Assembly (NCBI GenBank): GCA_963169765.1
Contig: CAUJEN010000073.1
Location: forward strand, 10,932-74,931
Length of the DNA: 64,000 nt
Source of the DNA: Vulcanimicrobiota bacterium
GTDB taxonomy: Bacteria; Vulcanimicrobiota; Xenobia; Xenobiales; QWHO01
Reading direction: 5' to 3'
Shown here: positions 7,376 through 40,184 of the stretch, piece by piece
How positions within the stretch are numbered: position 1 is the first letter of the stretch
Layout: every line of letters starts with the position of its first letter
Translations under genes and position numbers: made by a program
The notes under the pieces: model-generated
Database searches by the model: none
Seen by the model: the letters and a program-made list of their open reading frames with translations, nothing else
What the model was told of the DNA's origin: nothing

Positions 7376-7439
7376 CCGCTCAACAGATTTTTTTCTGGCT
7401 GCCAGGAACTTTCTGGGCAGCCCGGAAGTCGGGGATACT

Positions 7440-7772
7440 GTGAAGCGAACCCTGTGGATCTGGCTGGCTTTGATGTTGCTGGCGCTGCCCGGCTCCTCTG
7501 CCCCCTGTGGCGACGAGCCCGCCGCCGGCTGCTGCTGCGCCGACCCGGCCCAGGTGGTTTGCTGCTGCGAGCCCGAATCGGGTCCGTCGCAGTCTCCGGC
7601 TCCCCCCGCCGCAGCCAGCCCTGAATGCGCGCTGAGCTCGAGCGGAGAGCGAGCCATCGCCCCTCCCGCCCCGGCCCCGCTGCTCGCTTATCAGGTCGCT
7701 CGACCCGAGCCCCGACGGGCCGACTGGGGCTCTCCTCAAAGCGCAGAGCGCGCTCCCCCTCGCTGCGCCTGA
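7440..7772 (+). CDS. Secreted Cys-rich (CCC-motif) low-complexity protein
   Basis: Signal peptide MKRTLWIWLALMLLALPGSSA, then CGDEPAAGCCCADPAQVVCCCEPE and a Pro/Ala-rich tail. First of three co-directional Cys-rich genes. Confidence 0.5.
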   Translation: MKRTLWIWLALMLLALPGSSAPCGDEPAAGCCCADPAQVVCCCEPESGPSQSPAPPAAASPECALSSSGERAIAPPAPAPLLAYQVARPEPRRADWGSPQSAERAPPRCA

Positions 7773-7829
7773 GCCTCGCGGCTCACGCGGTGACTTGAAA
7801 CTATATCAAGAGATGGGAGACTATTCATC

Positions 7830-8243
7830 ATGCGTTTTCTGAAACTGTCTTTGCTGGCCGTGGTGGCCAGCATCCTGAGCCTGGGGACCGCTATGGCCGC
7901 CAGCAACTGCTGCCCGAACGGTGCTTGCTGTGTTCCGGGCGCTGCCTGCTGTGAATCGAAAGATTCCAAAGCGGCTGACTGCTGCCCCAACGGTCCCTGC
8001 TGCGCCACCGGCGAGAGCTGCTGCACGGCCAGGGCTCAGTCCGCCTCGCAAACGGCTGACTGCTGCCCCGACGGTCCCTGCTGCGCCACCGGCGAGAGCT
8101 GCTGCGCGGCCAAGGCTCAGCCCGCCTCGCAAACGGCTGACTGCTGCCCCGACGGTCCGTGCTGCGCCACCGGCGAGAGCTGCTGCGAGAACAGCCAGGC
8201 TGTTGCTCTCCCGGCCCAGCTGGCGAGCTGCTGCGGCCAGTAA
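7830..8243 (+). CDS. Secreted Cys-rich tandem-repeat protein (CCPxGxCCxxGxxCC units)
   Basis: Good RBS (GGGAGA) before ATG and a signal peptide. Three near-identical about 60-bp tandem DNA repeats (8041-8220) encode TADCCPDGPCCATGESCC units. Followed by a rho-independent terminator. Confidence 0.6.
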   Translation: MRFLKLSLLAVVASILSLGTAMAASNCCPNGACCVPGAACCESKDSKAADCCPNGPCCATGESCCTARAQSASQTADCCPDGPCCATGESCCAAKAQPASQTADCCPDGPCCATGESCCENSQAVALPAQLASCCGQ

Positions 8244-8251
8244 ATAGCCTG

Positions 8252-8290
8252 GGAAAGGGCGCCAGCCTTCAGGGTTGGCGCCCTTTTTCA
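8252..8290 (+). terminator. Rho-independent terminator
   Basis: GC-rich hairpin (agggcgccagcc ... ggttggcgccct) followed by TTTTTC, immediately after the stop of the 7830-8243 gene. Confidence 0.6.
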
Positions 8291-8358
8291 TGGCGAAGGG
8301 TTTGCCTCCCCTCCCCTAGAACCCAATTCACGCAAGAATGGAAAGGAGCCCCTGAACA

Positions 8359-8904
8359 ATGCTTACACGCCTGACCGGACTCTTACTCGGACTGGCGCTG
8401 CTGATCACCCCGGCCTTCGCGGGCGGAGATTGCAAAGACGGCCAGAAATGCGAGCAGGGCCAGACCTGCGATCAGAGCGGCAAGAACGGCGGCGACTGCT
8501 GCGACAAGGGCGGCAAGAGCGGCGGCGATTGCTGCGATCAGGGCGGCAAGGACGGCGGAGACTGCTGCGACAAAGGCGGCAAGAGCGGCGGCGATTGCTG
8601 CGATCAGGCCAAGGACGGCAAGGACGGTTGCGCCGACTGCAAGGACGGTGGGCAGGGCGCCTGCAATCAGGTTTGCGCCGAGTGGAGCTACGCCGAGGCT
8701 TCCCAGTACACCCGTTGCGACCAGCACACCTGCCCGAACGACCTGGCCATGCAAGAGGGTAAGCAACCCAAGCGCTGGGCGGCTGGCAACCCCAACTATG
8801 GCCTGACAGTGAGAAACGACTGTTGCTGGCCGGATCGCGTCGAGAATGTCCGCAATGCGTGCCGCAATAACTTTAACCTCGGCATGCCCGTGTGGCCCTG
8901 GTAA
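8359..8904 (+). CDS. Secreted Cys-rich tandem-repeat protein (GGDCCD[KQ]GGK units) with Cys-rich C-terminal domain
   Basis: Signal peptide MLTRLTGLLLGLALLITPAFA. Four tandem 30-bp-unit repeats encode GGDCCDKGGKSGGDCCDQGGK. The C-terminal domain has further conserved Cys residues. Confidence 0.6.
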   Translation: MLTRLTGLLLGLALLITPAFAGGDCKDGQKCEQGQTCDQSGKNGGDCCDKGGKSGGDCCDQGGKDGGDCCDKGGKSGGDCCDQAKDGKDGCADCKDGGQGACNQVCAEWSYAEASQYTRCDQHTCPNDLAMQEGKQPKRWAAGNPNYGLTVRNDCCWPDRVENVRNACRNNFNLGMPVWPW

Positions 8905-8929
8905 AGCAAGCCTGAAGGTCCCTGTTACC

Positions 8930-8963
8930 AGTCTGAGCGGGCGGAATACCGCCCGCTCAGACT
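8930..8963 (+). terminator. Perfect 15-bp stem hairpin downstream of the Cys-rich gene cluster (no U-tract)
   Basis: agtctgagcgggcgg-aata-ccgcccgctcagact is a perfect inverted repeat 26 nt after the stop at 8904. No T-run follows, so it could be a factor-dependent terminator or an RNA-stability element. Confidence 0.35.
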
Positions 8964-9036
8964 GTTGAGACGCAAGCGGTCGTGCTACCGTACCGAGCCC
9001 AGGAAGCTCTGGCAGAGTGATGCCCTGCACAATATC

Positions 9037-9186
9037 TTGTGGTGGCGGAGCTTTACAACGCGCAGGAACGCAGATCCGGCGCGATCGACGAAGCGCGGCC
9101 ACTGCTCGGGCAAGAACGGTAAGGCGATGTTGGGCGTCGCGCAGCCGGAAGACCTTGTCAGGGGGGCTTCCGGCAGCGCTCCTGGG
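9037..9186. repeat. Interspersed intergenic repeat element, copy A
   Basis: Shares 'ctttacaacgcgcaggaacgcag.tccggcgcg' with copy C (33823-33860). Shares the 3' hairpin module 'atgttgggcgtcgcgcagccggaag..cttgtcagggg..cttccggcagcgctcctgg' with copies B, C and D. Confidence 0.6.
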
Positions 9187-9293
9187 TGCAGCGTTCGCAA
9201 ACTCCCCTGCCGAGACCCCTCCTCCGTGGATTCAGGAGAGAGAGCCGGGAGATCAGAGGATTTGCTCTCCCCGATCCCCACTCAACCTCCACT

Positions 9294-10547
9294 CTAGCGA
9301 GGTCCCCCGAAGCCCATCAGGCGCATCCGCTCCTGCGCCTCGGCCATCAGGGCGGCGCCGGCCCTGATGCGCTCCACCCCCTGCTCGAGGTGAGAGCGAT
9401 GGGACTCGACGAAGAAGCGCTCAAGAAGCTCCACGCCCTCCAAGAACAAGCGGCTGGACGCCTCCATGCTCTTGCGGGAAGCCTCGGCGCCCTGGCGCAG
9501 CTCTTCGGAAGGGAAGCTGGCCGGGGGCTTGAGGTTGTCCAGGGCCCGCCTGCCCTGGCGCACGTTGGCCGCGAACCACTCCACCGTGGGCCTGAGCTCG
9601 GCGGCCGCCAGACGGTCGTCCAGGAAAGCCTCCACGGCCTCCTCCAGGCGCACGATGTAGGCAAAACGAGCCTGACCGGGGAGCCCGGCCTCGACCTCGA
9701 AAGTGCTTGCCGGCCCCATGGCCAGCTCTGGCAGGCGGGCCTGACATTGGCGGCACACCTTGCTGCCGGGCGCATTTGACTCCGAGCAGCGGGGGCAGAC
9801 CAGCCTGGGGGCGGCCGCTTCCAGCACCTTCTTGCGCAGCCCGAGCAGGTGGCTGGCCGTCTCCAGCACCATCTCACAGCCCTTCTTGAGATGCTCGCGA
9901 TTCTTGTCGGAGAAGTAGCGACTCATTTCCTTGAGCCCGCGCTTCATCTTCTCCATGCCCCGGGTGATCTCGGGGATCAGGGCCAGAACCTGCTCATTTT
10001 CAGCCGGGCTCTTGACCCACTCGCGAGCGTCGCCCATGGCCTGCTTCCAGTGGCTGTAGAAGGCGTCCAGGCGAATACGCAGAGGCTCGTCGGGGATCTG
10101 GCCCCGGGCCACGCCCAGGGCCACGCTGGCCAATTCGTTGACCAGCGGCGACTCGGAGTAAGTCGGAAAAGACTCCTCTTCCTGGCGCAGGCGGTCAAAG
10201 GCCCCCAGCATGCTGTCGGCCGCCTCCTGAGCTTCCCGACAGCCCCGCACCAGGTGGTCGGCCTGGCGGTCGTCGAGCCAGCGGTCGATGCGCTTGAGAG
10301 CGGTCTTCAGCCGTTCGAGCTCCTGGCGAATGAGCGGGTCGAGCTCTTTGATCAGGCTTGTGGACGGGCGCAGCTCCTTGCTGGAGCGATACTGCGCGCG
10401 CAACTGGTCCACGAAGATAGCCATGAACTTGAGGCGGGCCGCCAGCTCACGGGCCAGGGTCTTGTCCTGGGAGTTCTCAGAGCAAGCGCGTGCTGCCCGG
10501 ATCAGCTCGTTGAGCGCGGCTGATCGGGATAGCTCGAACGCCGGCAC
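9294..10547 (-). CDS. Hypothetical helical protein with central zinc-ribbon (CPRC ... CRQC)
   Basis: 417-aa ORF rich in charged helical segments, with a CxxC-x12-CxxC ribbon. Immediately downstream of and co-directional with the Gly-zipper micro-protein gene. Confidence 0.5.
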   Translation of the reverse strand: MPAFELSRSAALNELIRAARACSENSQDKTLARELAARLKFMAIFVDQLRAQYRSSKELRPSTSLIKELDPLIRQELERLKTALKRIDRWLDDRQADHLVRGCREAQEAADSMLGAFDRLRQEEESFPTYSESPLVNELASVALGVARGQIPDEPLRIRLDAFYSHWKQAMGDAREWVKSPAENEQVLALIPEITRGMEKMKRGLKEMSRYFSDKNREHLKKGCEMVLETASHLLGLRKKVLEAAAPRLVCPRCSESNAPGSKVCRQCQARLPELAMGPASTFEVEAGLPGQARFAYIVRLEEAVEAFLDDRLAAAELRPTVEWFAANVRQGRRALDNLKPPASFPSEELRQGAEASRKSMEASSRLFLEGVELLERFFVESHRSHLEQGVERIRAGAALMAEAQERMRLMGFGGPR

Positions 10548-10550
10548 GGA

Positions 10551-10853
10551 CTAGAAGCCGAAGGAACCGGCCAACCAGCCCAGGCTGGAGCCGAGCATGT
10601 TCCCCACGAACATTCCCGTCATCCCCGCCCAGGGATTGTTCATTCCACCGGCTGCAAAATAGCCCAGCGCGCCGCCCAGGCCGCCGCCGATCATACTGCC
10701 CGCAAAGCCCCCGTACATCGACATGGGGCTGAACATCATGGGGCCCATGAACATGCTCGAGCAGCCCCACAGGCCGCCCATATAGCTCCCAAACATCGGG
10801 GCTGGCCCCCAGAATCCGGGTGTTGCGAACGGACTACAACCGATTCCCCACAT
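10551..10853 (-). CDS. Small Gly/Met-rich glycine-zipper (YMGG-motif) protein
   Basis: 100-aa ORF with GC-rich third codon positions and an AAGGGG Shine-Dalgarno about 12 nt upstream. Contains SYMGG and repeated GxxxG/GGxGG zipper motifs. Confidence 0.45.
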   Translation of the reverse strand: MWGIGCSPFATPGFWGPAPMFGSYMGGLWGCSSMFMGPMMFSPMSMYGGFAGSMIGGGLGGALGYFAAGGMNNPWAGMTGMFVGNMLGSSLGWLAGSFGF

Positions 10854-11842: not shown

Positions 11843-12208
11843 CTATTCCGCCACCATCTTCTCGGCTTCCAGGCGGATCTCGGCCAGCTCTTCCGGCTCG
11901 ATCTGCAACTGCCTGGCGATGGCGTTGAGGTAGCGCAACTCGGCAATCTGGATGGTGCCATCGGCCACCGACAGGCTGCAGAGCACCTTCATCAACTTGC
12001 GCCGGCTGTCGTGGCGAGGGAACAAGCCATCCAGGTCGGGGGCCACGCCCTCTTGCATGAACCGGGCCACCTCTTGAATCTCGTCCTCACGGTAGCCCAG
12101 CCGCAGCAGAATATTGCCAAGGATGGCCCTCTCCTTGTCGCTCACCTCCCCGTCGGCCCAGATCACTCCGACCAGGCTCTTGAGCACTTCCCGTTCACGA
12201 TCGTCCAC
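11843..12208 (-). CDS. TerB-like (tellurite resistance TerB/DjlA-N domain) protein
   Basis: Duplicated LVGVIWADGEVSDKERAILGNIL / LCSLSVADGTIQIAELRYLNAI pattern typical of the TerB fold. Confidence 0.65.
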   Translation of the reverse strand: MDDREREVLKSLVGVIWADGEVSDKERAILGNILLRLGYREDEIQEVARFMQEGVAPDLDGLFPRHDSRRKLMKVLCSLSVADGTIQIAELRYLNAIARQLQIEPEELAEIRLEAEKMVAE

Positions 12209-13535
12209 CGGCTGGCTGCCCTCCGCTTTTGTTATCCGCCCTTTCGGGGGCAGCGGCGCGAGCCCTGCTGAGCCAGTTGGCCGCCCCCACGCCGGCGGCC
12301 CGGCCGGTGGCCAGGCAGGCAGTCAGAAGATAGCCCCCGGTGGGTGCCTCCCAGTCGAGCATCTCGCCGGCTGCGAACACGCCCGGCAGGCGACGCAGCA
12401 TCAGGTCCGGTCCCAGCTCGTCGAAGACCAGGCCGCCGGCGGAGCTGATGGCCTCCTCCAGAGGGCGAGTGGCCCGCAGGCGAAGAGGGAGCGCTTTGAT
12501 GCAAGCTCCCAGGCGACTCAGGTCCTCCTCCAGGCTAGCGCTGACCAGCTCACGCAGCAAACCGGCCTTGACTCCTTCGATATGGGCTCGGCGGCGCAAG
12601 TGCTCGCTCAGCGAGCGGCTGCCCCGGGGCAGGGCGAGCTCGCGCTGCAGGCGCTCCAGCGTTCGGTCGGGGGCCAGGTCGAGCTGGACGGTCGCCTCCC
12701 CCCGGGCTTCGATCTCGTCGCGCAAGGCCGGCGAGTAAGGGTAAATCAGGCTCCCTTCCAGACCATACTCGGTGACCATGAGCTCACCCCGCCGGACCAC
12801 CTCCGCGTGGCTCAAGGTCACCGACTTGACCGGGTGGCCGGCATATCGTTGGCGGAATTTCTCGCTCCATTCCACCTCGAAACCGCAGTTGGAGGGCCGC
12901 AGCGTGGCCACTGCCAGACCGCGCTGGCGAAGCCACGGAACCCAGGCCCCGTCCGATCCGAGCCGACTCCAGCTCGCACCGCCCAGGGCCAGGACCACGG
13001 CCGGCGCCGCCACCGTGATCTCGCCCTCGGGAGTGCGCACGAGCAGCTCTCCTCCCGCAGTCCAGCCCACCCAGCGATGGCGCGAGTGCAGCTTCACCCC
13101 CTGCTCGCGCAGTCGGCGCAGCCAGGCGCGCAACAATGGCGCCGCCTTCATCTCGCGAGGAAACACCCGACCCGAGCTGCCCACGAAGGTGGAGATGCCC
13201 AGTTGGGCAGCCCAGTCTCGCAACTGGGAGGGGCCGAATGCCCGCAGATGGGGCTCGAGCCGGGCCCGACCAGGGCCGTATCGCTCCAAAAAGTTCTCGA
13301 AGGGCTCGGAATGAGTCAAGTTCAGCCCGCCCTTGCCCGCCAGCAAGAACTTGCGAGCTGGCGTGGGCATGGAGTCGTACAATTCCACCGAGAAGCCCCG
13401 CTCCAGCAGGGCCTCGGAGGCCATCAGCCCGGCCGGTCCGGCCCCGATCACCGCAGCATCCAAGTCCTGATCTCCGCTCCTTGCGCACCCGGCGTCCGAT
13501 ACATTACAACAAATCGATGAGAACCCTGCTGGCAT
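12195..13535 (-). CDS. NAD(P)/FAD-dependent oxidoreductase (HI0933/BaiN-like flavoprotein family)
   Basis: N-terminal DAAVIGAGPAGLMA Rossmann motif and GRVFP / C-terminal GG motifs of HI0933-like flavoproteins. Exact start uncertain. Confidence 0.75.
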   Translation of the reverse strand: MPAGFSSICCNVSDAGCARSGDQDLDAAVIGAGPAGLMASEALLERGFSVELYDSMPTPARKFLLAGKGGLNLTHSEPFENFLERYGPGRARLEPHLRAFGPSQLRDWAAQLGISTFVGSSGRVFPREMKAAPLLRAWLRRLREQGVKLHSRHRWVGWTAGGELLVRTPEGEITVAAPAVVLALGGASWSRLGSDGAWVPWLRQRGLAVATLRPSNCGFEVEWSEKFRQRYAGHPVKSVTLSHAEVVRRGELMVTEYGLEGSLIYPYSPALRDEIEARGEATVQLDLAPDRTLERLQRELALPRGSRSLSEHLRRRAHIEGVKAGLLRELVSASLEEDLSRLGACIKALPLRLRATRPLEEAISSAGGLVFDELGPDLMLRRLPGVFAAGEMLDWEAPTGGYLLTACLATGRAAGVGAANWLSRARAAAPERADNKSGGQPAGGRS

Positions 13536-28715: not shown

Positions 28716-29075
28716 CACATAGCTCTGCAGCCTCACACTTCTCGCAATGCTGCCCTCCGTCCAGGTCACCTCGGAGACGACGTTGTTGACGCCGGGCCAG
28801 CCCTGCGCAGCGACCGTGACCTGGCACGTAAAGGTCGTACTGACCGCCACTCCATTGACCTCGCCCAGGACGGTCGTGGCTTGTGGACCCCAATTGGCCG
28901 CATTGGCATAACCCCTGGCCATCGTCGTTTCGAGATGCTCGCGAGCGAGATTGGTGGCCACCAGGACATTCTTGGCCTGGGTGGTGGCCCGGTGGCTGGT
29001 CGGGAAAATGCCGAACAGGAGTAACAGGGAAACGCAGAAGAGCCCGAGACCGAAGATGATCTCGAGCAGCATGCT
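28704..29075 (-). CDS. Type IV pilin-like protein (PilV-like pseudopilin)
   Basis: Start chosen at MSMLLEIIFGLGLFCVSLLLLF (prepilin-type N-terminal hydrophobic helix with Glu). Co-directional with the other pilin-like genes. Confidence 0.45.
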   Translation of the reverse strand, partial: SMLLEIIFGLGLFCVSLLLLFGIFPTSHRATTQAKNVLVATNLAREHLETTMARGYANAANWGPQATTVLGEVNGVAVSTTFTCQVTVAAQGWPGVNNVVSEVTWTEGSIARSVRLQSYVADF

Positions 29076-29178
29076 CATCCCCCGCTGGCTCTTGCGACTC
29101 CTCACGAAAGAATCGTACCACAAGGGCAAAACAAAGGAAAGCTTGCCCCTAAAAAGAATTGCCCGGAAGAATCCAACT

Positions 29179-32100
29179 GTGCGAACCAGAGCGCGCAACT
29201 GGCGCGCGCCCTACCAATCAATCTTGCGCCCACTCATTCTGGCTCTCTTTTTCTGCTCGGGCCTGTCGGGCCTGGTCTACGAGGTGCTCTGGACGCGCCG
29301 CCTGACCCTGACCTTCGGCCACTCGGTGCTGGCCGCCAGCACCGTGGTGACGGCCTATATGCTGGGGCTGGCCGCCGGGAGCCTGTGGGCCGGCCGGCGG
29401 GTGGACCGAGCCACGGCCTCGCGGGGAACCTTCCTGACCACCTACGCCTGGCTCGAGATCGGCATCGCGCTCTGGGCAGGGGGCTCTCCATGGCTTCTGA
29501 TCGGAATCGACCAGCTCTGGTTTTCTCTGGCAGCCTCCGGCTGGACCTCGCTCTGGCTCTGGCTGGCCGCCTTCCTGGCGGCGCTGGCCGCCCTCACTCC
29601 CCCGACCTTCCTGATGGGAGCGACCCTGCCGGTGTTGAGTCGGGCGCTGGTGGGCGAGAGCCGTCAGCTGGGCCGCTCGCTCTCCTGGCTGTATGGCGTC
29701 AACACTCTGGGAGCCTGCGCCGGCGCCGGGCTGGCGGGCTGGTTCTTGCTACCCGGTCTGGGCCTGACAACCTCCTTGCTGATCACGGCCGGGCTCAACC
29801 TGGGCCTGGGAGCTCTGGCCTGGTTGCTGGGCTGGGCCTGGCCCGGCCAGCCGGCCAGCCCTCCAACCCTCCGCGAGGAGATCGCCGCTTCCAGCCCGAC
29901 GGCCCTGGCCGCCCCGGCCATGGCCCTGGCCGGGCTGGCATCCATGGCCCTGCAGTTGGGCTGGATGCGGGCCATGGCGCAGCTGCTGGGCTCCTCGGTC
30001 TACGCCTTCTCGACCACGCTGGCCGTATTTCTGGCTGGCCTGGGGCTGGGCGGGGCACTGTTCTCCCTGCTGCCTTCCTCGCGGCGCCCTCGCTCGTGGC
30101 ATCTGGGCCTGACGCTGGCCCTGACCGGTCTGGCCGCGGCCGGAAGCTACCTGGTGATCGACTGGCTGCCCGGCCTGGCCCTGCAGCTCCATCGCATGGT
30201 GCGCCCCGACATTCTGGGCACGGTGGCGCCCACGGCCGGTCTGGCCGGGCTGGTGATCCTGCCGCCCACTTTGCTGATGGGCCTGGCCCTGCCGCTGGCC
30301 AGCGCGCTCGAGGCTCACCGCCGCGACGCGCTGGGGCGTGGGCTGTCGGCCGTCTACAGCGCCAATACGGCCGGCTGTATCGCCGGAGCCGCCCTGGCCG
30401 GCCTGGTGGCCATTCCCTTCCTGGGCGTGCAGCTCACCCTCAAGCTGGCCGCCCTGGCCTACCTGGCAGCCGCCCTGCTGGTCTGGCCGCGCGCCTGGCC
30501 GGCCCTGCTCCCGGGCCTGGCCGTGCTGATCCTACCCGCCTGGAATCTAGCCCTGATCGCTAACGGGCCCGGCGTCTACTCCGACTTTCTGGCTCGCGCC
30601 AGATCCACAAATACCCTGCGGCCACCGGCCTTCTATCGAGACGGCCTCTCCAGCACGGTCACGGTCAACGTCTACGGGCCCAACGAGCAGGCCCTGCGCG
30701 TCAACGGCAAGGTGGACGCCTCCCTGGGTCTGCCCGACATGCAGACCATGCTGCTGCTTGGCTACATCCCCGCAGCTTATCACGTCGGGCTGCGCAAGGC
30801 GGTCGTGATCGGGCTGGGAAGCGGATTCAGCCTCCGCGCCCTGGCCAATCTGTCCGCGCTCGAGCGGCTCGACTGCGTCGAGCTCGAGCCGGCCGTGGTG
30901 GAAGCGGGCCGGTACTGGGCGGGCTACAACGGGCGGGTGCTGGAAGATCCTCGCCTGCGAATGCACCTGACCGACGGGCGCACCTTTATCCAGGCCTCCC
31001 GCGAGAAGTATGACCTGATCGCCAGCGAGCCTTCCAACCCCTGGATCGCAGGGGTCGCCAACCTCTACACCCGTGAGTTCTACCTCTCCTGTGTGCAGCG
31101 CCTCGAGCCGGGCGGAATCATGGCTCAGTGGGTGCAGCTCTACGGGCTGTCCCAGCAAGATCTGCACTCTGTCCTGCGCACCTTCTTCGAGGTCTTTCCC
31201 CACGGGGCTGTGTGGCAAACCTCCAGCGGCGACCTCTTGCTGCTCGGCTCGCTCACCCCCCTCCCCTTCGATCTTGCTCGCCTGGAGAAACTGAGCGCCG
31301 CCTCCCCCGCCATCCGCCGGGACCTGGCCGCCATCCAGCTCTACCGGCCGGCCATGCTGCTCGGCCACTACCTGGGCGAGCGCGATCCCTTCTATGCCGC
31401 CTTTCGGGCCGCTCCGCGCAACACCGACGACCGGCCCCGGCTCGAGTTCACGGCCCCCTTCGGGCTGTTCCGCGACAACACTCCGGGCAACCTGCTCTCG
31501 CTGGATCTGGCACGCACCGGACAAAGCCCCCTGCCACCGGGGGTCGATCCCTCTCCCGAGCGACGGATCGAAGCCGCCCACGGACAGGTCAACCTCAATC
31601 GCGTGGGGGACATCCAGCTCCTGGCCCCCCTTAAAGACGTGCCCGGCTGCAGCCTGGTGGCCGCCCGCTCAGCCGAGCGCGAGCAAGACGAGCTGACCCC
31701 CCGACTCTATGAGCAGGCGCTCCAGGAGCAACCCGACGACCCGGTCACCTTGTGGCTCTCGGCCCTCTACCTTCTGACGCGAGGAAACCTTGCCGACGGG
31801 GCAAAACTGCTGGCCCGACTGGAGAAAAGCCCTCCGGACGGCCTGGAGGAAAGCGTGCTGGTGGTGCGAGCCCAGGTGCTGCACCGACTGGGCCGTTTGC
31901 AGGAGGCTGAAGCCTGCTTGCTGCGGGCGATCGGGCTGAAGACCGGCTACAGCACGGCCTGGACCTGGTTGGGACGCATCCAGGCCGCCTCCAACAAGCC
32001 ACAAGCCGCCCTGGAGAGCTTCGAGCAAGCTCTGAGTCTGAACGCTTACGACCCGGACGCTCGCGCCGGCAAGACCTTGGCGCTGATGGCTCTGAAGCGC

Positions 32101-32313
32101 TTTCCGGAGGCGATTACCGCCGCTCGAGCCATGCTCGAGTTGCAAAGCGACAACGCCGAAGGCTGGATGTACCTCTCCACCGCCTTGCAGGCGTCGGGGG
32201 ACGCGAGAGGGAGCGAGCAGGCCCGGGCCCGGGCCCGCCAGCTCGACCCCAAGATCGGTCGTCCCGACCAGCTCTTCGAGCCCCCGGACAAGAACCAGCT
32301 GCCCCAGCGCTGA
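29179..32313 (+). CDS. Fused polytopic-membrane (MFS-like)/spermidine-synthase-like protein with C-terminal TPR repeats, paralog 1
   Basis: About 12 TM N-terminal region aligned with paralog 2 (LSGLVYEVLWTRRLTLTFGHSV...). Central spermidine-synthase fold (GSGFSLRALANL ... DLIASEPSNPW ... LYTREFY). C-terminal TPR. Start ambiguous (GTG 29179 or TTG 29224) because the upstream frame overlaps the divergent pilin gene. Confidence 0.7.
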   Translation: MRTRARNWRAPYQSILRPLILALFFCSGLSGLVYEVLWTRRLTLTFGHSVLAASTVVTAYMLGLAAGSLWAGRRVDRATASRGTFLTTYAWLEIGIALWAGGSPWLLIGIDQLWFSLAASGWTSLWLWLAAFLAALAALTPPTFLMGATLPVLSRALVGESRQLGRSLSWLYGVNTLGACAGAGLAGWFLLPGLGLTTSLLITAGLNLGLGALAWLLGWAWPGQPASPPTLREEIAASSPTALAAPAMALAGLASMALQLGWMRAMAQLLGSSVYAFSTTLAVFLAGLGLGGALFSLLPSSRRPRSWHLGLTLALTGLAAAGSYLVIDWLPGLALQLHRMVRPDILGTVAPTAGLAGLVILPPTLLMGLALPLASALEAHRRDALGRGLSAVYSANTAGCIAGAALAGLVAIPFLGVQLTLKLAALAYLAAALLVWPRAWPALLPGLAVLILPAWNLALIANGPGVYSDFLARARSTNTLRPPAFYRDGLSSTVTVNVYGPNEQALRVNGKVDASLGLPDMQTMLLLGYIPAAYHVGLRKAVVIGLGSGFSLRALANLSALERLDCVELEPAVVEAGRYWAGYNGRVLEDPRLRMHLTDGRTFIQASREKYDLIASEPSNPWIAGVANLYTREFYLSCVQRLEPGGIMAQWVQLYGLSQQDLHSVLRTFFEVFPHGAVWQTSSGDLLLLGSLTPLPFDLARLEKLSAASPAIRRDLAAIQLYRPAMLLGHYLGERDPFYAAFRAAPRNTDDRPRLEFTAPFGLFRDNTPGNLLSLDLARTGQSPLPPGVDPSPERRIEAAHGQVNLNRVGDIQLLAPLKDVPGCSLVAARSAEREQDELTPRLYEQALQEQPDDPVTLWLSALYLLTRGNLADGAKLLARLEKSPPDGLEESVLVVRAQVLHRLGRLQEAEACLLRAIGLKTGYSTAWTWLGRIQAASNKPQAALESFEQALSLNAYDPDARAGKTLALMALKRFPEAITAARAMLELQSDNAEGWMYLSTALQASGDARGSEQARARARQLDPKIGRPDQLFEPPDKNQLPQR

Positions 32314-37508: not shown

Positions 37509-40184
37509 GTGGGGCGAGGGCGTTATCTGGCCATCAGCGCGCTGTTTCTGTTTTCCGGAGCAGCCGGCCTGATCTTGCAGCTCATCTGGGCCCGGCGCCT
37601 GGCCCTTGTCTTCGGCAGCACGGTCCACTCAACGTCCACCACCGCCTCCGCCTTTCTGCTGGGTCTGGGTGTAGGTGCCTACCTCGCCGGGCGCTACCTC
37701 ACCCGGCGCCCCAACCTGCTGGGCATCTTCGGTCTGTTGGAGCTGGGGGTGGGCGCCTCGGGCCTGGCGGTGACCTGGCTCATCCCCCAGATCGTGCCCC
37801 TGGCCGTTCAGCTGACCCGTACCCACCCCGACGAGGCGGTTTTCGGAGGACTTCGCTTCGCCATCGTCTTCGTCATGCTGATCGTGCCCTGCACCCTCAT
37901 GGGGGCCACCCTGCCCGTGCTGACCCACTTCCTGGTCTCTCAGGAGGGTCTCTTCGGGCCCATCCTGGCCAGGCTGTACACGGTGAACACGCTGGGCGGG
38001 GCCATCGGAGTCATGCTGGCCGACTTTGCCCTGGTGGGCCGGCTGGGGGTCTTCCAGACGGCGGTGGTGGCCGCTCTGTTCGACATGGCTGTTGGTCTTC
38101 TGGCCCTGCTGGCCTCCAGCCGGTTCCCTGGCCCCGCTGAGCAACCCGACGAGTCGCCCTCCGGCCGAGTGCCGCTCTCGCTCTCCTTGCTGCTGTTCGT
38201 CATCGGCTTCTGCGGGCTGGCGCTGGAGATTCTCTGGACGCGGCTGCTGGTGTTCGTGAACGGCACCGACATTCACGCCTTCTCGCTGGTGCTGGCGGTC
38301 TTTCTGGTGGGCCTGGTCGGGGGTGGATTCCTGGCCGGGCGCTACCTGCGCGCTCGATCCGAGGAGAGGGTTCTGGCCGCCCTGCTGGTGGCTCTGGGCT
38401 GGCTCAGCCTGGCGAGCCTGCTGACGGTCGCTTTCATGAGAAATCTCAGCCTGGCTCTGATCGGAATGCTTGGCATCGATGGCTCGCGGGTGGTGGTCAA
38501 CGCCCTGCTGGTGCTGCCCTGCGCGCTGGTGCTCGGGGCCCTGTTTCCGCTGATCAACTCGGCCCTCTACCGCCAGCTTCAATCGGCCGGCCCGGCGGTG
38601 GGACAGGCCTACGTCTGGAACACGGCCGGCAACATGCTGGGCTCATTGATGGCGGGATTCGTGCTCATCCCTCTGCTGGGGCTGCAGCGGAGCCTGTTGC
38701 TGGTGGCCCTGCTGGCAGGCATCGCGGGCCTTTGCTGGCAGCGCCGTCCGGCCCTCTGGGCGGCGGTGATCGCCCTGGCCTTCACCAGCCTGTTGCTGCC
38801 CGGGGATTACCTGCTGCGCCAGCTTTATGCCAGGGATTATCCCAACATCCTCTACCACGCCGAGGATCATCTCAGCTCGGTGGCCCTGGTCAAGCAGTGG
38901 AGCGAGCTCGAGCTCGACTCCAATCCCAACCTCATCGTGGACGGCTTCACGATGATGCACAACGACCTGCGCAGCAAACGCTACGCCACCATGCTGGGGC
39001 TGGTGCCGTGCACGCTGCATCCGGAGCCCAGAGAGGTTCTGGTGATCTGTCTGGGGCTGGCCAACACCCTGTCGGCCGTCACCCGCAACCCGCGGACCGA
39101 GCGAGTGGATTGCGTGGAGCTCTCGCCCAAGGTCAATGAGGCCATCCGGCTTTTGCCCTACGCCCGGGAAACGCTGGAAAGCGACAAGGTCAAGGTCCAC
39201 CTGGGGGACGGCCGCAACTACCTTCTGACCACCGACCGGCTCTATGACGTGATCACTGCCGAGCCGCCGCCACCTCGCAACGCCGGCATCGTGAGCCTCT
39301 ATTCGCGGGAATACTACCAGTTGTGTCGCAGCCGTCTCAAGCCGGGCGGGCTGGTGGCTCACTGGCTGCCCATCGGCCTGATGACCCGGTTCCAGGCCCG
39401 GGCAACCCTGCGCGCCTTTCAGGACGTCTTTCCTTACACCTACCTGTTTCAAGGCGAGGATCTGCACATCGTCATGCTGGGCTCGGATCGCGCTCTGGAC
39501 CTGCTCTCGGTGGACCTGCCTGGGGAGGCCTGGCTGGAGGAGTTGGGCCTGGCGCCAGGAGCGCTCTTCGCGGCCGCCTACCTGCGCGGGCCCGAGGAGG
39601 TGCGCAGGTATGTGGCCAACACCCCACCCCTGACCGACGATCACCCCTACCTCCAGTATGACCTGGGCCTGGAGGAGCCCGACTGGGAATTCTTCTTCTC
39701 CGGCTCACTGCCGTCTGAGCTCTGGACTCCCGAGACCAGGAAGGCCCAGGTGGCCCTGCGCACGCTGCCCCTGGTGGTGTGGACCCGTAGCGGCAACCCG
39801 CTGCTCGATCGCCTGGTGCAGCTCGAGGCCGCCCGGGCCGTGCTGAAGGGGTTTCCCGACAACGCTTATTTTCGGATGACCACGCGCACCAGTGAGCAGC
39901 ACCAGGCTCACTACCAGGGCCTGCCTGGAGCGGACGGGGCCTACAACCGCGCCCGCGTAGCCTTCAGTACGGGCGACTTCCCCACCGCGCTGCGCGAGAT
40001 CGACAGTCTGAAGGTGCCCGACAACCCCGAGCTGGCTCTCTTCTTGCAGCTGTTTCGAGCCCTGGTACTGACCGAGGCTGGCCGGCTGGAGGAGGCGGCG
40101 GCCCTCTACCAGGCCGCCTCCAGCCCGGACCCGCGCCTGGACGGCTACATCAAGAGCAAGAGAGGCTCGAGCAAGGCACCCTGA
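37509..40184 (+). CDS. Fused polytopic-membrane (MFS-like)/spermidine-synthase-like protein with C-terminal TPR repeats, paralog 2
   Basis: GTG start. N-terminal TM region alignable to paralog 1 (LFSGAAGLILQLIWARRLALVFGSTV...). Spermidine-synthase core (DVITAEPPPP ... SLYSREYY). TPR-like C-terminus. Confidence 0.75.
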   Translation: MGRGRYLAISALFLFSGAAGLILQLIWARRLALVFGSTVHSTSTTASAFLLGLGVGAYLAGRYLTRRPNLLGIFGLLELGVGASGLAVTWLIPQIVPLAVQLTRTHPDEAVFGGLRFAIVFVMLIVPCTLMGATLPVLTHFLVSQEGLFGPILARLYTVNTLGGAIGVMLADFALVGRLGVFQTAVVAALFDMAVGLLALLASSRFPGPAEQPDESPSGRVPLSLSLLLFVIGFCGLALEILWTRLLVFVNGTDIHAFSLVLAVFLVGLVGGGFLAGRYLRARSEERVLAALLVALGWLSLASLLTVAFMRNLSLALIGMLGIDGSRVVVNALLVLPCALVLGALFPLINSALYRQLQSAGPAVGQAYVWNTAGNMLGSLMAGFVLIPLLGLQRSLLLVALLAGIAGLCWQRRPALWAAVIALAFTSLLLPGDYLLRQLYARDYPNILYHAEDHLSSVALVKQWSELELDSNPNLIVDGFTMMHNDLRSKRYATMLGLVPCTLHPEPREVLVICLGLANTLSAVTRNPRTERVDCVELSPKVNEAIRLLPYARETLESDKVKVHLGDGRNYLLTTDRLYDVITAEPPPPRNAGIVSLYSREYYQLCRSRLKPGGLVAHWLPIGLMTRFQARATLRAFQDVFPYTYLFQGEDLHIVMLGSDRALDLLSVDLPGEAWLEELGLAPGALFAAAYLRGPEEVRRYVANTPPLTDDHPYLQYDLGLEEPDWEFFFSGSLPSELWTPETRKAQVALRTLPLVVWTRSGNPLLDRLVQLEAARAVLKGFPDNAYFRMTTRTSEQHQAHYQGLPGADGAYNRARVAFSTGDFPTALREIDSLKVPDNPELALFLQLFRALVLTEAGRLEEAAALYQAASSPDPRLDGYIKSKRGSSKAP

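Follow-up and report, generated by a model that had tools for sequence, protein, structure and literature searches.

A widespread two-gene cassette encoding cysteine-doublet repeat proteins in Candidatus Xenobia and Planctomycetes

Cysteine-rich repeat proteins that bind metals or form cross-links are a known kind of protein, and those closest to the genes described here are the metallothioneins, the granulins, the chlamydial OmcA/OmcB proteins together with the KAPs, the vicinal-Cys sites of the mer proteins, and the copper-storing Csp1 and Csp3. We analysed a stretch of 64,000 nucleotides (hereafter the window) from a Vulcanimicrobiota metagenome-assembled genome (MAG; assembly GCA_963169765.1, contig CAUJEN010000073.1, positions 10,932 to 74,931), in which three consecutive genes on the plus strand, called gene 1, gene 2 and gene 3 in the following, encode small Cys-rich proteins (Table 1). 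Judged by its sequence, gene 2 belongs to a previously undescribed and unannotated protein family found mostly in Planctomycetes, whose members are usually encoded together with an upstream partner gene in a widespread and likewise undescribed two-gene cassette. Related loci and related proteins are referred to by L- and P-numbers, respectively.

Metallothioneins (SmtA/BmtA, MymT and the eukaryotic metallothioneins) resemble gene 2 in being small, modular and composed to 20-23% of Cys, with no predicted stable apo fold. CC doublets occur in their alpha domains as they do in gene 2, the mature product of which has no aromatic residues or His, and two loci related to gene 2 adjoin metal-homeostasis genes. 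Metallothioneins are cytosolic, whereas the gene 2 product is probably exported or tethered to the membrane. Its gene also has a dedicated partner, and nearly all Cys of the protein form CC doublets, arranged strictly in threes with Pro/Gly turns, instead of CxC or CxxC; it matched neither Metallothio_Pro (SmtA/BmtA) nor any other metallothionein family of Pfam. Granulins (CC-x8-CC-x6-CC-x5-CC, a disulfide-laddered hairpin stack) share with gene 2 the consecutive doublets and the short, turn-rich spacers, but they are eukaryotic and have 12 Cys per module including flanking single Cys, whereas gene 2 showed no Pfam Granulin match and no predicted hairpin stack. A profile search of the gene 2 family against the PDB returned nothing significant, granulin being one of only two weak matches (E 7.5, 9.8 bits, not significant). 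OmcA/OmcB and the KAPs, which are exported or structural, also combine CC doublets with Pro-rich spacers (CCxPxCC in KAPs). They work by forming disulfide cross-links between molecules, and OmcA and OmcB are encoded by a gene pair; in contrast to gene 2, however, OmcA has the canonical lipobox of a lipoprotein and the KAPs are eukaryotic, and no homology was detected. The vicinal Cys of the mer proteins (MerT, MerF, MerC and the C-terminal CC of MerA) lie near a membrane helix or the C-terminus, as in the cassette, and one cassette (L027) follows a regulator of MerR type whose operator dyad is mer-like, but homology to Mer transport proteins was not found, nor was merA or merP present at any locus. 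Csp1 and Csp3, finally, are Cys-rich bacterial proteins storing many Cu(I) ions, and Csp1 is exported. They are four-helix bundles with a Cys-lined core that leave the cytoplasm folded via Tat, whereas gene 2 has a Sec-type signal, no predicted bundle and no homology to them.

Gene 2 encodes four modules of the form [D/N]CC-x4-CC-x5-CC followed by a C-terminal SCCGQ, amounting to 13 doublets and 26 Cys with no lone Cys. The linkers are 9 or 12 residues long and rich in Ala, Gln and Ser, so that modules 2-4 follow each other at 27 amino acids (aa) from start to start. The initial annotation had counted seven units and three 60-bp repeats at 8041-8220; both have to be replaced by the four modules with a terminal CC and by the 81-bp period given in Table 1. 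The mature protein comprises 114 aa with 22.8% Cys and contains no F, W, Y, H or M. Low mass, high Cys content and few or no aromatic residues define metallothioneins operationally, and the gene 2 product shows all of these, being somewhat larger than classical metallothioneins.

We defined the CC-triplet family by an N-terminal signal or anchor followed by at least two modules CC-x(4-5)-CC-x(4-5)-CC, and by the near absence of Cys outside doublets; gene 2 has spacers of 4 and 5 residues in each of its modules. A profile built from the Xenobia orthologues alone matched P0007 at E 8.6e-7 and P0008 at 2.6e-5 among 5.8e9 sequences. When 1.84 billion cluster representatives were searched exhaustively with HMMER, 67 proteins matched at E < 1e-3, and 41 metagenome loci were confirmed from a scan with the pattern [DS]CCP[DGN]GxCC, which was derived from a four-sequence subset of the family. 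Against a family hidden Markov model (HMM) built without it, gene 2 scored 72.7 bits, a value reached by none of 500 CC-preserving shuffles, all of which stayed at or below 27 bits. Since shuffles that keep the doublets score far lower, the likeness to the family lies in the arrangement and not merely in the composition.

Family members range from 67 to 170 aa, and their N-termini are hydrophobic, in many cases reading MLTKL. Of the 1180 Cys counted in 69 family proteins, 95.4% sit in CC doublets. The spacers are chiefly of 5 aa (285 spacers) or 4 aa (74 spacers) and have turn-forming sequences such as YPGSP, FPGSP, PDGA and NPPQE. The doublets are grouped in threes, giving six thiols per module. 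Two or three modules are found per protein, gene 2 having the most, and an extra CC lies within 8 residues of the C-terminus in 45/69. Named members were traced to MAGs of Gemmataceae and to a single MAG of Bryobacteraceae, and two more cluster look-ups added no taxonomy beyond these families. That the proteins fall into no family that can be named, as noted at the outset, was borne out: the database members are all labelled "hypothetical protein", solved structures gave no significant match, and Pfam and NCBIfam returned no family at E <= 1 for any of the three genes save two spurious low-complexity matches. The family motif strings had no match in the searchable literature, in which we also found nothing relevant on vicinal-Cys periplasmic proteins, Cys-rich proteins of Planctomycetes, or MauE/MerR. 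Three related sequences deviate in form. On the nanopore-derived contig of L014 a gene 2-like gene (1211-1666) appears frameshifted, ending in LLRGRGLLLR, and its protein probably has more modules, since this string corresponds to CC repeats read out of frame. L045 (1278-2195) encodes a 305-aa protein packed with CCP...CC motifs and of granulin-like look, and P0064 (233 aa) has CC-x5-CC pairs every 49 residues.

An all-against-all BLAST comparison of neighbouring open reading frames (ORFs) revealed a single recurring neighbour family, encoded directly 5' of the CC-triplet genes on the same strand. In an HMM search this partner gene (LPPGWCC...CVWLC) was present in that position in 30 of 40 metagenome loci outside Xenobia and in L018-L021; most of the loci in which it was not detected have no upstream sequence. 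The partner proteins of 110-160 aa have a signal peptide ending in LALPPGWCC, a Cys/Pro-rich middle part with CCC or CCCC runs (e.g. NCCCADRHATVPE) and an invariant C-terminus (LHxxxCVWLC), and matched no family in Pfam or NCBIfam. The same comparison of neighbours gave no third conserved cassette gene, only synteny within sublineages (a PAS histidine kinase and a PhnS-like binding protein). In the window the corresponding position is taken by gene 1, which consists of a signal-like segment MKRTLWIWLALMLLALPGSSA, PCG, GCCCADP, VVCCCEPE (the CCCADP and CCCEPE reported for it are present), a Pro/Ala-rich tail and a C-terminal PPRCA. Its 9 Cys are all invariant in four species, and the gene is preserved though uncalled by annotators in L003, L004 and L012. 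Gene 1 resembles the partner in position, similar size, LALPG at the signal end, CCC runs, the Pro-rich tail and a Cys two residues from the end. Because profile-profile and HMM tests did not support membership, we treat gene 1 as the positional and compositional counterpart of the partner, possibly a diverged orthologue.

An open reading frame alone was weak evidence in this GC-rich genome, in which long antisense Ala-rich ORFs overlie gene 2 and gene 3, and coding was therefore tested directly against the orthologues in L003 and L004, by counting substitutions by codon position and by the ratio of nonsynonymous to synonymous differences (pN/pS). Differences at codon positions 1/2/3 numbered 4/2/21 (L003) and 17/8/30 (L004) in gene 1, 13/5/16 and 22/7/43 in gene 2, and 19/12/32 and 15/14/36 in gene 3, and pN/pS was 0.11-0.34 for the three genes, with 0.30 for a neighbouring amine oxidase. 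All three are real genes under purifying selection, with the coordinates and strand of the initial annotation. The antisense ORFs at 7821-8291 and 8383-9102 on the minus strand were ruled out as true genes by the codon-position pattern, the ribosome-binding sites (GGGAG 10 nt 5' of the ATG of gene 2, AAGGAG 5' of gene 3), the plus-strand terminator and the family evidence; for gene 2 the antisense reading is excluded because its most variable position, the third, would be the first of the ORF at 7821-8291. Gene 2 and gene 3 are the only ORFs in the whole window with at least three CC doublets. The signal peptides proposed for all three proteins appeared signal-like by inspection, each N-terminus having a K/R n-region and a hydrophobic 12-mer with a mean Kyte-Doolittle value of 2.5-2.6, and cleavage-like sites were predicted by eye between AMA and AS in gene 2 and between AFA and GG in gene 3. 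Export of the three products is thus probable.

Directly downstream of gene 2, the hairpin at 8254-8286 with its UUUUU tract has a folding energy of -39.5 kcal/mol (z -7.1 vs shuffled controls) and is kept in L003 and L004, with an extra U-A pair in L004. The U tract and this conservation with an added pair identify it as a canonical terminator. In view of this strong terminator, genes 1 and 2, which lie 57 bp apart on the same strand, make up one transcription unit, and gene 3 is separate. What had been described as a tandem trio is therefore a gene 1-gene 2 cassette closed by a terminator and an independent gene 3, which was found without genes 1 and 2 in three lineages (L007, L010 and L013). 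A terminator-like hairpin had been reported behind gene 3 as well. It is real (-38.4 kcal/mol, z -5.5), but lacks the U tract. Two further elements were found on the 5' side of the coding regions. An imperfect inverted repeat ahead of gene 1, of which the core GCCAGGAACTTTC(T/C)GG is invariant in four species while the flanks vary, is unexceptional as an RNA fold (z -1.8) and is a candidate operator or 5' leader hairpin. A palindrome between gene 1 and gene 2, of which the window, L003 and L004 share the same arms but not the spacer (fold z -0.7), is a candidate regulator site, though arms this short may occur by chance.

Metal-related neighbours were found at two loci. L027, which stems from the same reactor project and a different organism, has four co-directional genes separated by 15, 34 and 183 bp, in the order MerR-type regulator, NLNCGSCV/MauE fusion, partner gene and CC-triplet gene, with no convincing terminator between them. 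The regulator belongs to the metal-sensing clade of the MerR family (PF09278 3e-20; MerR 5e-39, CueR 4e-38, ZntR 3e-36, CadR 6e-30), below every NCBIfam equivalog cutoff, and has the C-terminal loop CHGDCSTTGCPILAALQG; in an alignment to what we take to be the Tn21 MerR sequence it lacks the equivalent of Cys82 of Hg-MerR. The promoter 5' of the regulator, TTGACT-CTGTAGTATGGTACGG-GATAAT, has a spacer of 19-20 bp, over-long as is typical of MerR promoters, and the spacer holds a dyad CTGTAG-TATG-GTACGG that presumably resembles the Tn501 mer operator. In the second gene an N-terminal NLNCGSCV domain is fused to a MauE membrane domain (1.8e-13), and the product may be an undescribed metal-handling membrane protein. 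No further copies of the regulator or of the fusion were found in the other loci with phmmer. We also noted that NCBIfam holds no model for the HMA-like NCGSC-MauE architecture encoded here (regulator and fusion at L027 3068-4273). At the other locus, L053, the CC-triplet gene is followed after 49 bp by a co-directional gene for a multicopper oxidase. A third locus, L050, has a SurA-like chaperone adjoining the cassette. The L027 and L053 contexts lend circumstantial support to the soft-metal sequestration that the initial annotation had suggested. The metal-responsive regulator that it proposed to look for nearby was not among the scanned ORFs of the window, between 1 and ~45.7 kb.

The best single reading of gene 2, which we hold tentatively and at a little less than even probability, is that of an extracytoplasmic, metallothionein-like thiol scaffold. 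It is favoured by the L027 and L053 contexts, by the composition of the protein (23% Cys and no aromatics, His or Met) and by the missing predicted apo fold. The chain of four six-Cys modules (CC-turn-CC-turn-CC) with flexible linkers and a terminal CC would, in the reduced or reversibly oxidised state, wrap one small soft-metal thiolate cluster of the Cu(I), Cd, Zn or Hg type per module, a size to which six thiols would be suited, and could so act as a metallothionein-like buffer in the periplasm or on the outer face of the cytoplasmic membrane, with the upstream Cys/Pro-rich protein (here gene 1) as a possible loading, redox or anchoring partner. Both the metal binding and the role of the partner are what we infer. 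AlphaFold with 69 sequences gave gene 2 a predicted local distance difference test score (pLDDT) of 56.7 and no stable apo fold, which fits such a scaffold since it would fold only on its ligand. A bolder version we regard as unlikely: the cassette might be the first extracytoplasmic metallothionein-type system in bacteria, in which the membrane-proximal partner (gene 1 being a diverged form) loads, reduces or anchors a polymer of (Cys)6 modules caging soft-metal clusters, with a module unrelated to known metal-binding folds, widespread in Planctomycetota and having reached Xenobia.

Several points weigh against a metallothionein-like scaffold. Most cassette neighbourhoods are unrelated housekeeping genes, metal-related context being confined to 2 of ~15 loci with usable flanks, and the scanned window ORFs comprised housekeeping functions only, with no metal regulator, transporter, Dsb gene or RiPP enzyme (for ribosomally synthesized and post-translationally modified peptides). 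The best PDB matches of the N-domain of the L027 fusion were HMA domains of Cu-ATPases at a sub-significant E of 0.1-1, and Pfam was silent on it. Homology of gene 1 to the partner family was not supported (hhalign probability 3%, HMM scores of -4.4 to 2.3 bits, the real score reached by 129/1000 shuffles). A low pLDDT can equally be a failure of AlphaFold on such a sequence. Exported thiols are normally oxidised, and disulfide-laddered hairpin stacks just as typically have Pro/Gly turns as the spacers of their Cys pairs. To our knowledge, periplasmic soft-metal binders use Met and His and not Cys, and we know of metallothioneins only as cytosolic proteins, with CxC and CxxC besides CC.

The last points lead to the most serious alternative, one we consider somewhat unlikely, namely that gene 2 is a disulfide-laddered structural or envelope protein, the modules of which oxidise to cystine-stapled hairpin stacks or cross-link the envelope while the partner co-assembles. 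Export signals, the even number of six Cys per module, the tight-turn spacers with their many Pro, Gly, Asp and Asn residues and the weak granulin match across CC-x6-CC-x5-CC are in line with this, as are the Cys/Pro-rich partner, the absence of metal genes near most loci and the concentration of the family in Gemmataceae; planctomycete envelopes are classically reported as cystine- and proline-rich. The SurA-like chaperone of L050 and the MauE domain of L027 can be counted here too, MauE being linked to the maturation of disulfide-rich proteins. Cross-linking by disulfides, one of two modes that had been suggested, thus remains a live rival. However, none of the granulin, KAP and chlamydial Omc families was significantly similar, AlphaFold gave no hairpin stack, and the MerR-type sensor operon of L027 and the multicopper oxidase beside L053 would be left unexplained. 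The recurrent extra CC at the C-terminus would be odd for a purely structural ladder. Gene 2 may instead be an extracytoplasmic redox buffer or thiol sink. Vicinal dithiols are classic binders of arsenicals and electrophiles, and they might here scavenge oxidants, electrophiles, metalloids (arsenite, tellurite, selenite) or reactive nitrogen, the terminal CC within the last 8 residues serving as a swinging arm and the partner re-reducing or relaying; this CC is similar to the redox-active Cys pairs at the C-termini of MerA and insect thioredoxin reductase. The redox-associated annotation of the MauE domain protein, a TerB-domain gene near the Xenobia locus and the chemically reactive habitat of anammox and wastewater reactors agree with such a role, which we nevertheless consider improbable. 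No thioredoxin-fold, DsbD-like or reductase gene was linked to any locus, one small protein has a low stoichiometric capacity, and the TerB adjacency is ordinary synteny of close relatives that holds also without genes 1 and 2.

Small size, a signal peptide, high Cys content, fast divergence and a unit of two genes without enzymes, in stand-alone cassettes with long upstream regions, would also be expected of a secreted Cys-rich antimicrobial or signalling peptide (gene 2) with an immunity, chaperone or co-secreted partner upstream. This is still less probable, as the loci contained no transporter, regulator or processing protease of the bacteriocin type, the partner shows no clear transmembrane immunity-protein architecture besides its signal peptide, the N-terminal hydrophobic stretch of gene 2 is long enough for a membrane anchor, and synteny is stable on the chromosomes of four Xenobia species. 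Thioether formation, the other mode of cross-linking that had been suggested, would make gene 2 a RiPP precursor whose Cys a maturase from another locus converts into thioethers or cross-links of another type. Cys content and size would allow this, but a Sec-type signal stands in place of a leader peptide, no NCBIfam precursor model matched, and neither ~45 loci nor the scanned part of the window contained a radical-SAM, lanthipeptide, YcaO or other maturase, so that we regard it as very improbable.

If the modules bind metal, they would represent a new, sequence-unrelated class of bacterial metallothionein outside the cytoplasm, where thiol chemistry is unexpected, as known soft-metal handling there uses Met/His proteins. 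If they form disulfide ladders, the cassette may contribute to the envelopes of Planctomycetes, which are rich in cystine and proline. In both cases it is a conserved two-gene unit in dozens of uncultured lineages that currently carries no annotation, and the six-Cys module is compact enough to be of interest for metal capture and peptide engineering. What is new for this known kind of protein are the family definition, the partner gene, the split between genes 1 and 2 and gene 3, and one operon linked to a metal sensor.

Across four species all 26 Cys of gene 2 are kept bar the last, which is Trp in L004; the linkers vary, and the number of modules is four in 4/4. Changes from P to A and from G to N in L004 and L012 are common to several modules. 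Because such species-specific substitutions are shared between modules, concerted evolution through intragenic recombination better explains the near-identity of the repeats. The recent, contingency-like expansion or contraction that the near-perfect repeats had been taken to imply is thus not supported for gene 2; the DCCD units of gene 3 do vary in number, from 0 to 4, and do so between species. Another assembly of the species of the window (L001, 9433-9885) has a 39-bp in-frame insertion (SASQTADCCPDGP) that breaks a gene 2 module, and a contig of L002 (1-270) ends within the repeat with a module variant absent from the window. These may be real copy-number variants or short-read mis-assembly.

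The N-terminus of the gene 3 product is signal-like; it is followed by a variable region rich in Gly, Lys and Asp, which contains the four GGDCCD(K/Q)GGK units already reported, and by a Cys/Trp-rich C-terminal domain. The DNA repeat of gene 3, previously given as 30 bp, has a period of 33 or 66 bp. Only 5 homologues were found among 5.8 billion proteins and 3 in GTDB genomes, and all are of Xenobia type. In five sequences the N-terminus and the C-terminal domain (CAEWNYAE...CPNDLAMQEGKQPKRWAAGNPNY...NDCCWPD) are nearly invariant, and DCCD units number 4, 2, 2, 0 and 0, varying between species and not strains. In the three lineages that have gene 3 without genes 1 and 2 the DCCD repeats are missing too. 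We propose the C-terminal domain as the putative functional core and the DCCD repeat as a lineage-specific thiol-rich extension. Membership in the CC-triplet family was rejected, as the doublets lie 9 residues apart and the HMM score is 0.7 bits, and gene 3 represents a separate, Xenobia-only family. It had no significant PDB match and no Pfam match, and an AlphaFold model from 5 sequences was unusable (mean pLDDT 35.7).

In every relative an alpha/beta hydrolase gene (~310 aa, with the twin-arginine N-terminus MNRRQFLAASAALLAAPVAHA) follows gene 3 on the same strand. It is not found at 8905-9293 of the window, where it has been lost or moved elsewhere. A 417-aa zinc-ribbon/coiled-coil protein (9294-10547, minus strand) and a Gly/Met/Phe-rich ORF of ~80-100 aa (~10551-10853, minus strand) lie near gene 3 and stay near it despite several inversions and rearrangements in L007 (7495-9060), L010 (6667-8272) and L013 (9468-11046). 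This proximity may reflect a functional link or the synteny of close relatives.

Table 1. Positions of genes, protein segments and nucleic acid elements in the window and of the hydrolase gene beside gene 3 in related loci
Feature	Position	Strand	Remarks
Gene 1	7440-7772	+	GTG start, 110 aa
Gene 2	7830-8243	+	137 aa
Gene 3	8359-8904	+	181 aa
Gene 2, signal-like segment	residues 1-23	+	by inspection
Gene 2, module 1	Cys 27-41, nt 7908-7952	+	CC-x4-CC-x5-CC
Gene 2, module 2	Cys 51-65, nt 7980-8024	+	CC-x4-CC-x5-CC
Gene 2, module 3	Cys 78-92, nt 8061-8105	+	CC-x4-CC-x5-CC
Gene 2, module 4	Cys 105-119, nt 8142-8186	+	CC-x4-CC-x5-CC
Gene 2, terminal CC	residues 134-135	+	
Tandem DNA repeat inside gene 2	7967-8187	+	period 81 bp x 2.7 copies, 95% match (Tandem Repeats Finder)
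Tandem DNA repeat inside gene 3	8466-8608	+	33 bp x 4.2 or 66 bp x 2.2 (Tandem Repeats Finder)
Gene 3, C-terminal domain	nt ~8641-8901	+	~85 aa, conserved
Inverted repeat 5' of gene 1 start	7392-7427	+	imperfect, 17 nt; arms 7392-7408 / 7411-7427, 76% complementary; candidate element
Palindrome CTTGA-N7-TCAAG between genes 1 and 2	7794-7810	+	followed by the gene 2 ribosome-binding site GGGAG at 7815-7819; candidate element
Intrinsic terminator 3' of gene 2	8254-8291	+	GC-rich stem, core arms 14 nt (8254-8267 / 8273-8286), then TTTTT
Hairpin 3' of gene 3	8929-8964	+	perfect 16 bp, without U tract
Hydrolase beside gene 3, L012	8608-9534		
Hydrolase beside gene 3, L003	6635-7570		
Hydrolase beside gene 3, L004	6617-7543		
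Hydrolase beside gene 3, L007	6424-7371		
Hydrolase beside gene 3, L010	5635-6561		
Hydrolase beside gene 3, L013	8341-9381		

The window is chromosomal DNA with a GC content of ~66% and had no Rfam match over its length. A scan of reference genomes placed the host, a MAG lineage, in Candidatus Xenobia (Eremiobacterota/Vulcanimicrobiota), for which anammox and wastewater reactors are the source habitat, and the gene 3 product is identical in MAGs named "bacterium CPR1" at NCBI. Contig CAZWUN010000012.1 (L003 / L011) is titled "uncultured Burkholderiales bacterium", yet it is syntenic with Xenobia loci and its proteins are 80-95% identical, so that this label is probably wrong. Elsewhere in the window, 28951-32313 and 37509-40184 encode two unusually large proteins (1120 and 891 aa). 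Both contain a spermidine/spermine synthase domain, and one also has TPR repeats at its C-terminus. A TerB-domain protein (11843-12208, minus strand) adjoins an HI0933-like flavoprotein (12195-13535, minus strand) in all relatives, and in L007 (9104-10672) the two are joined in a single 522-aa fusion.

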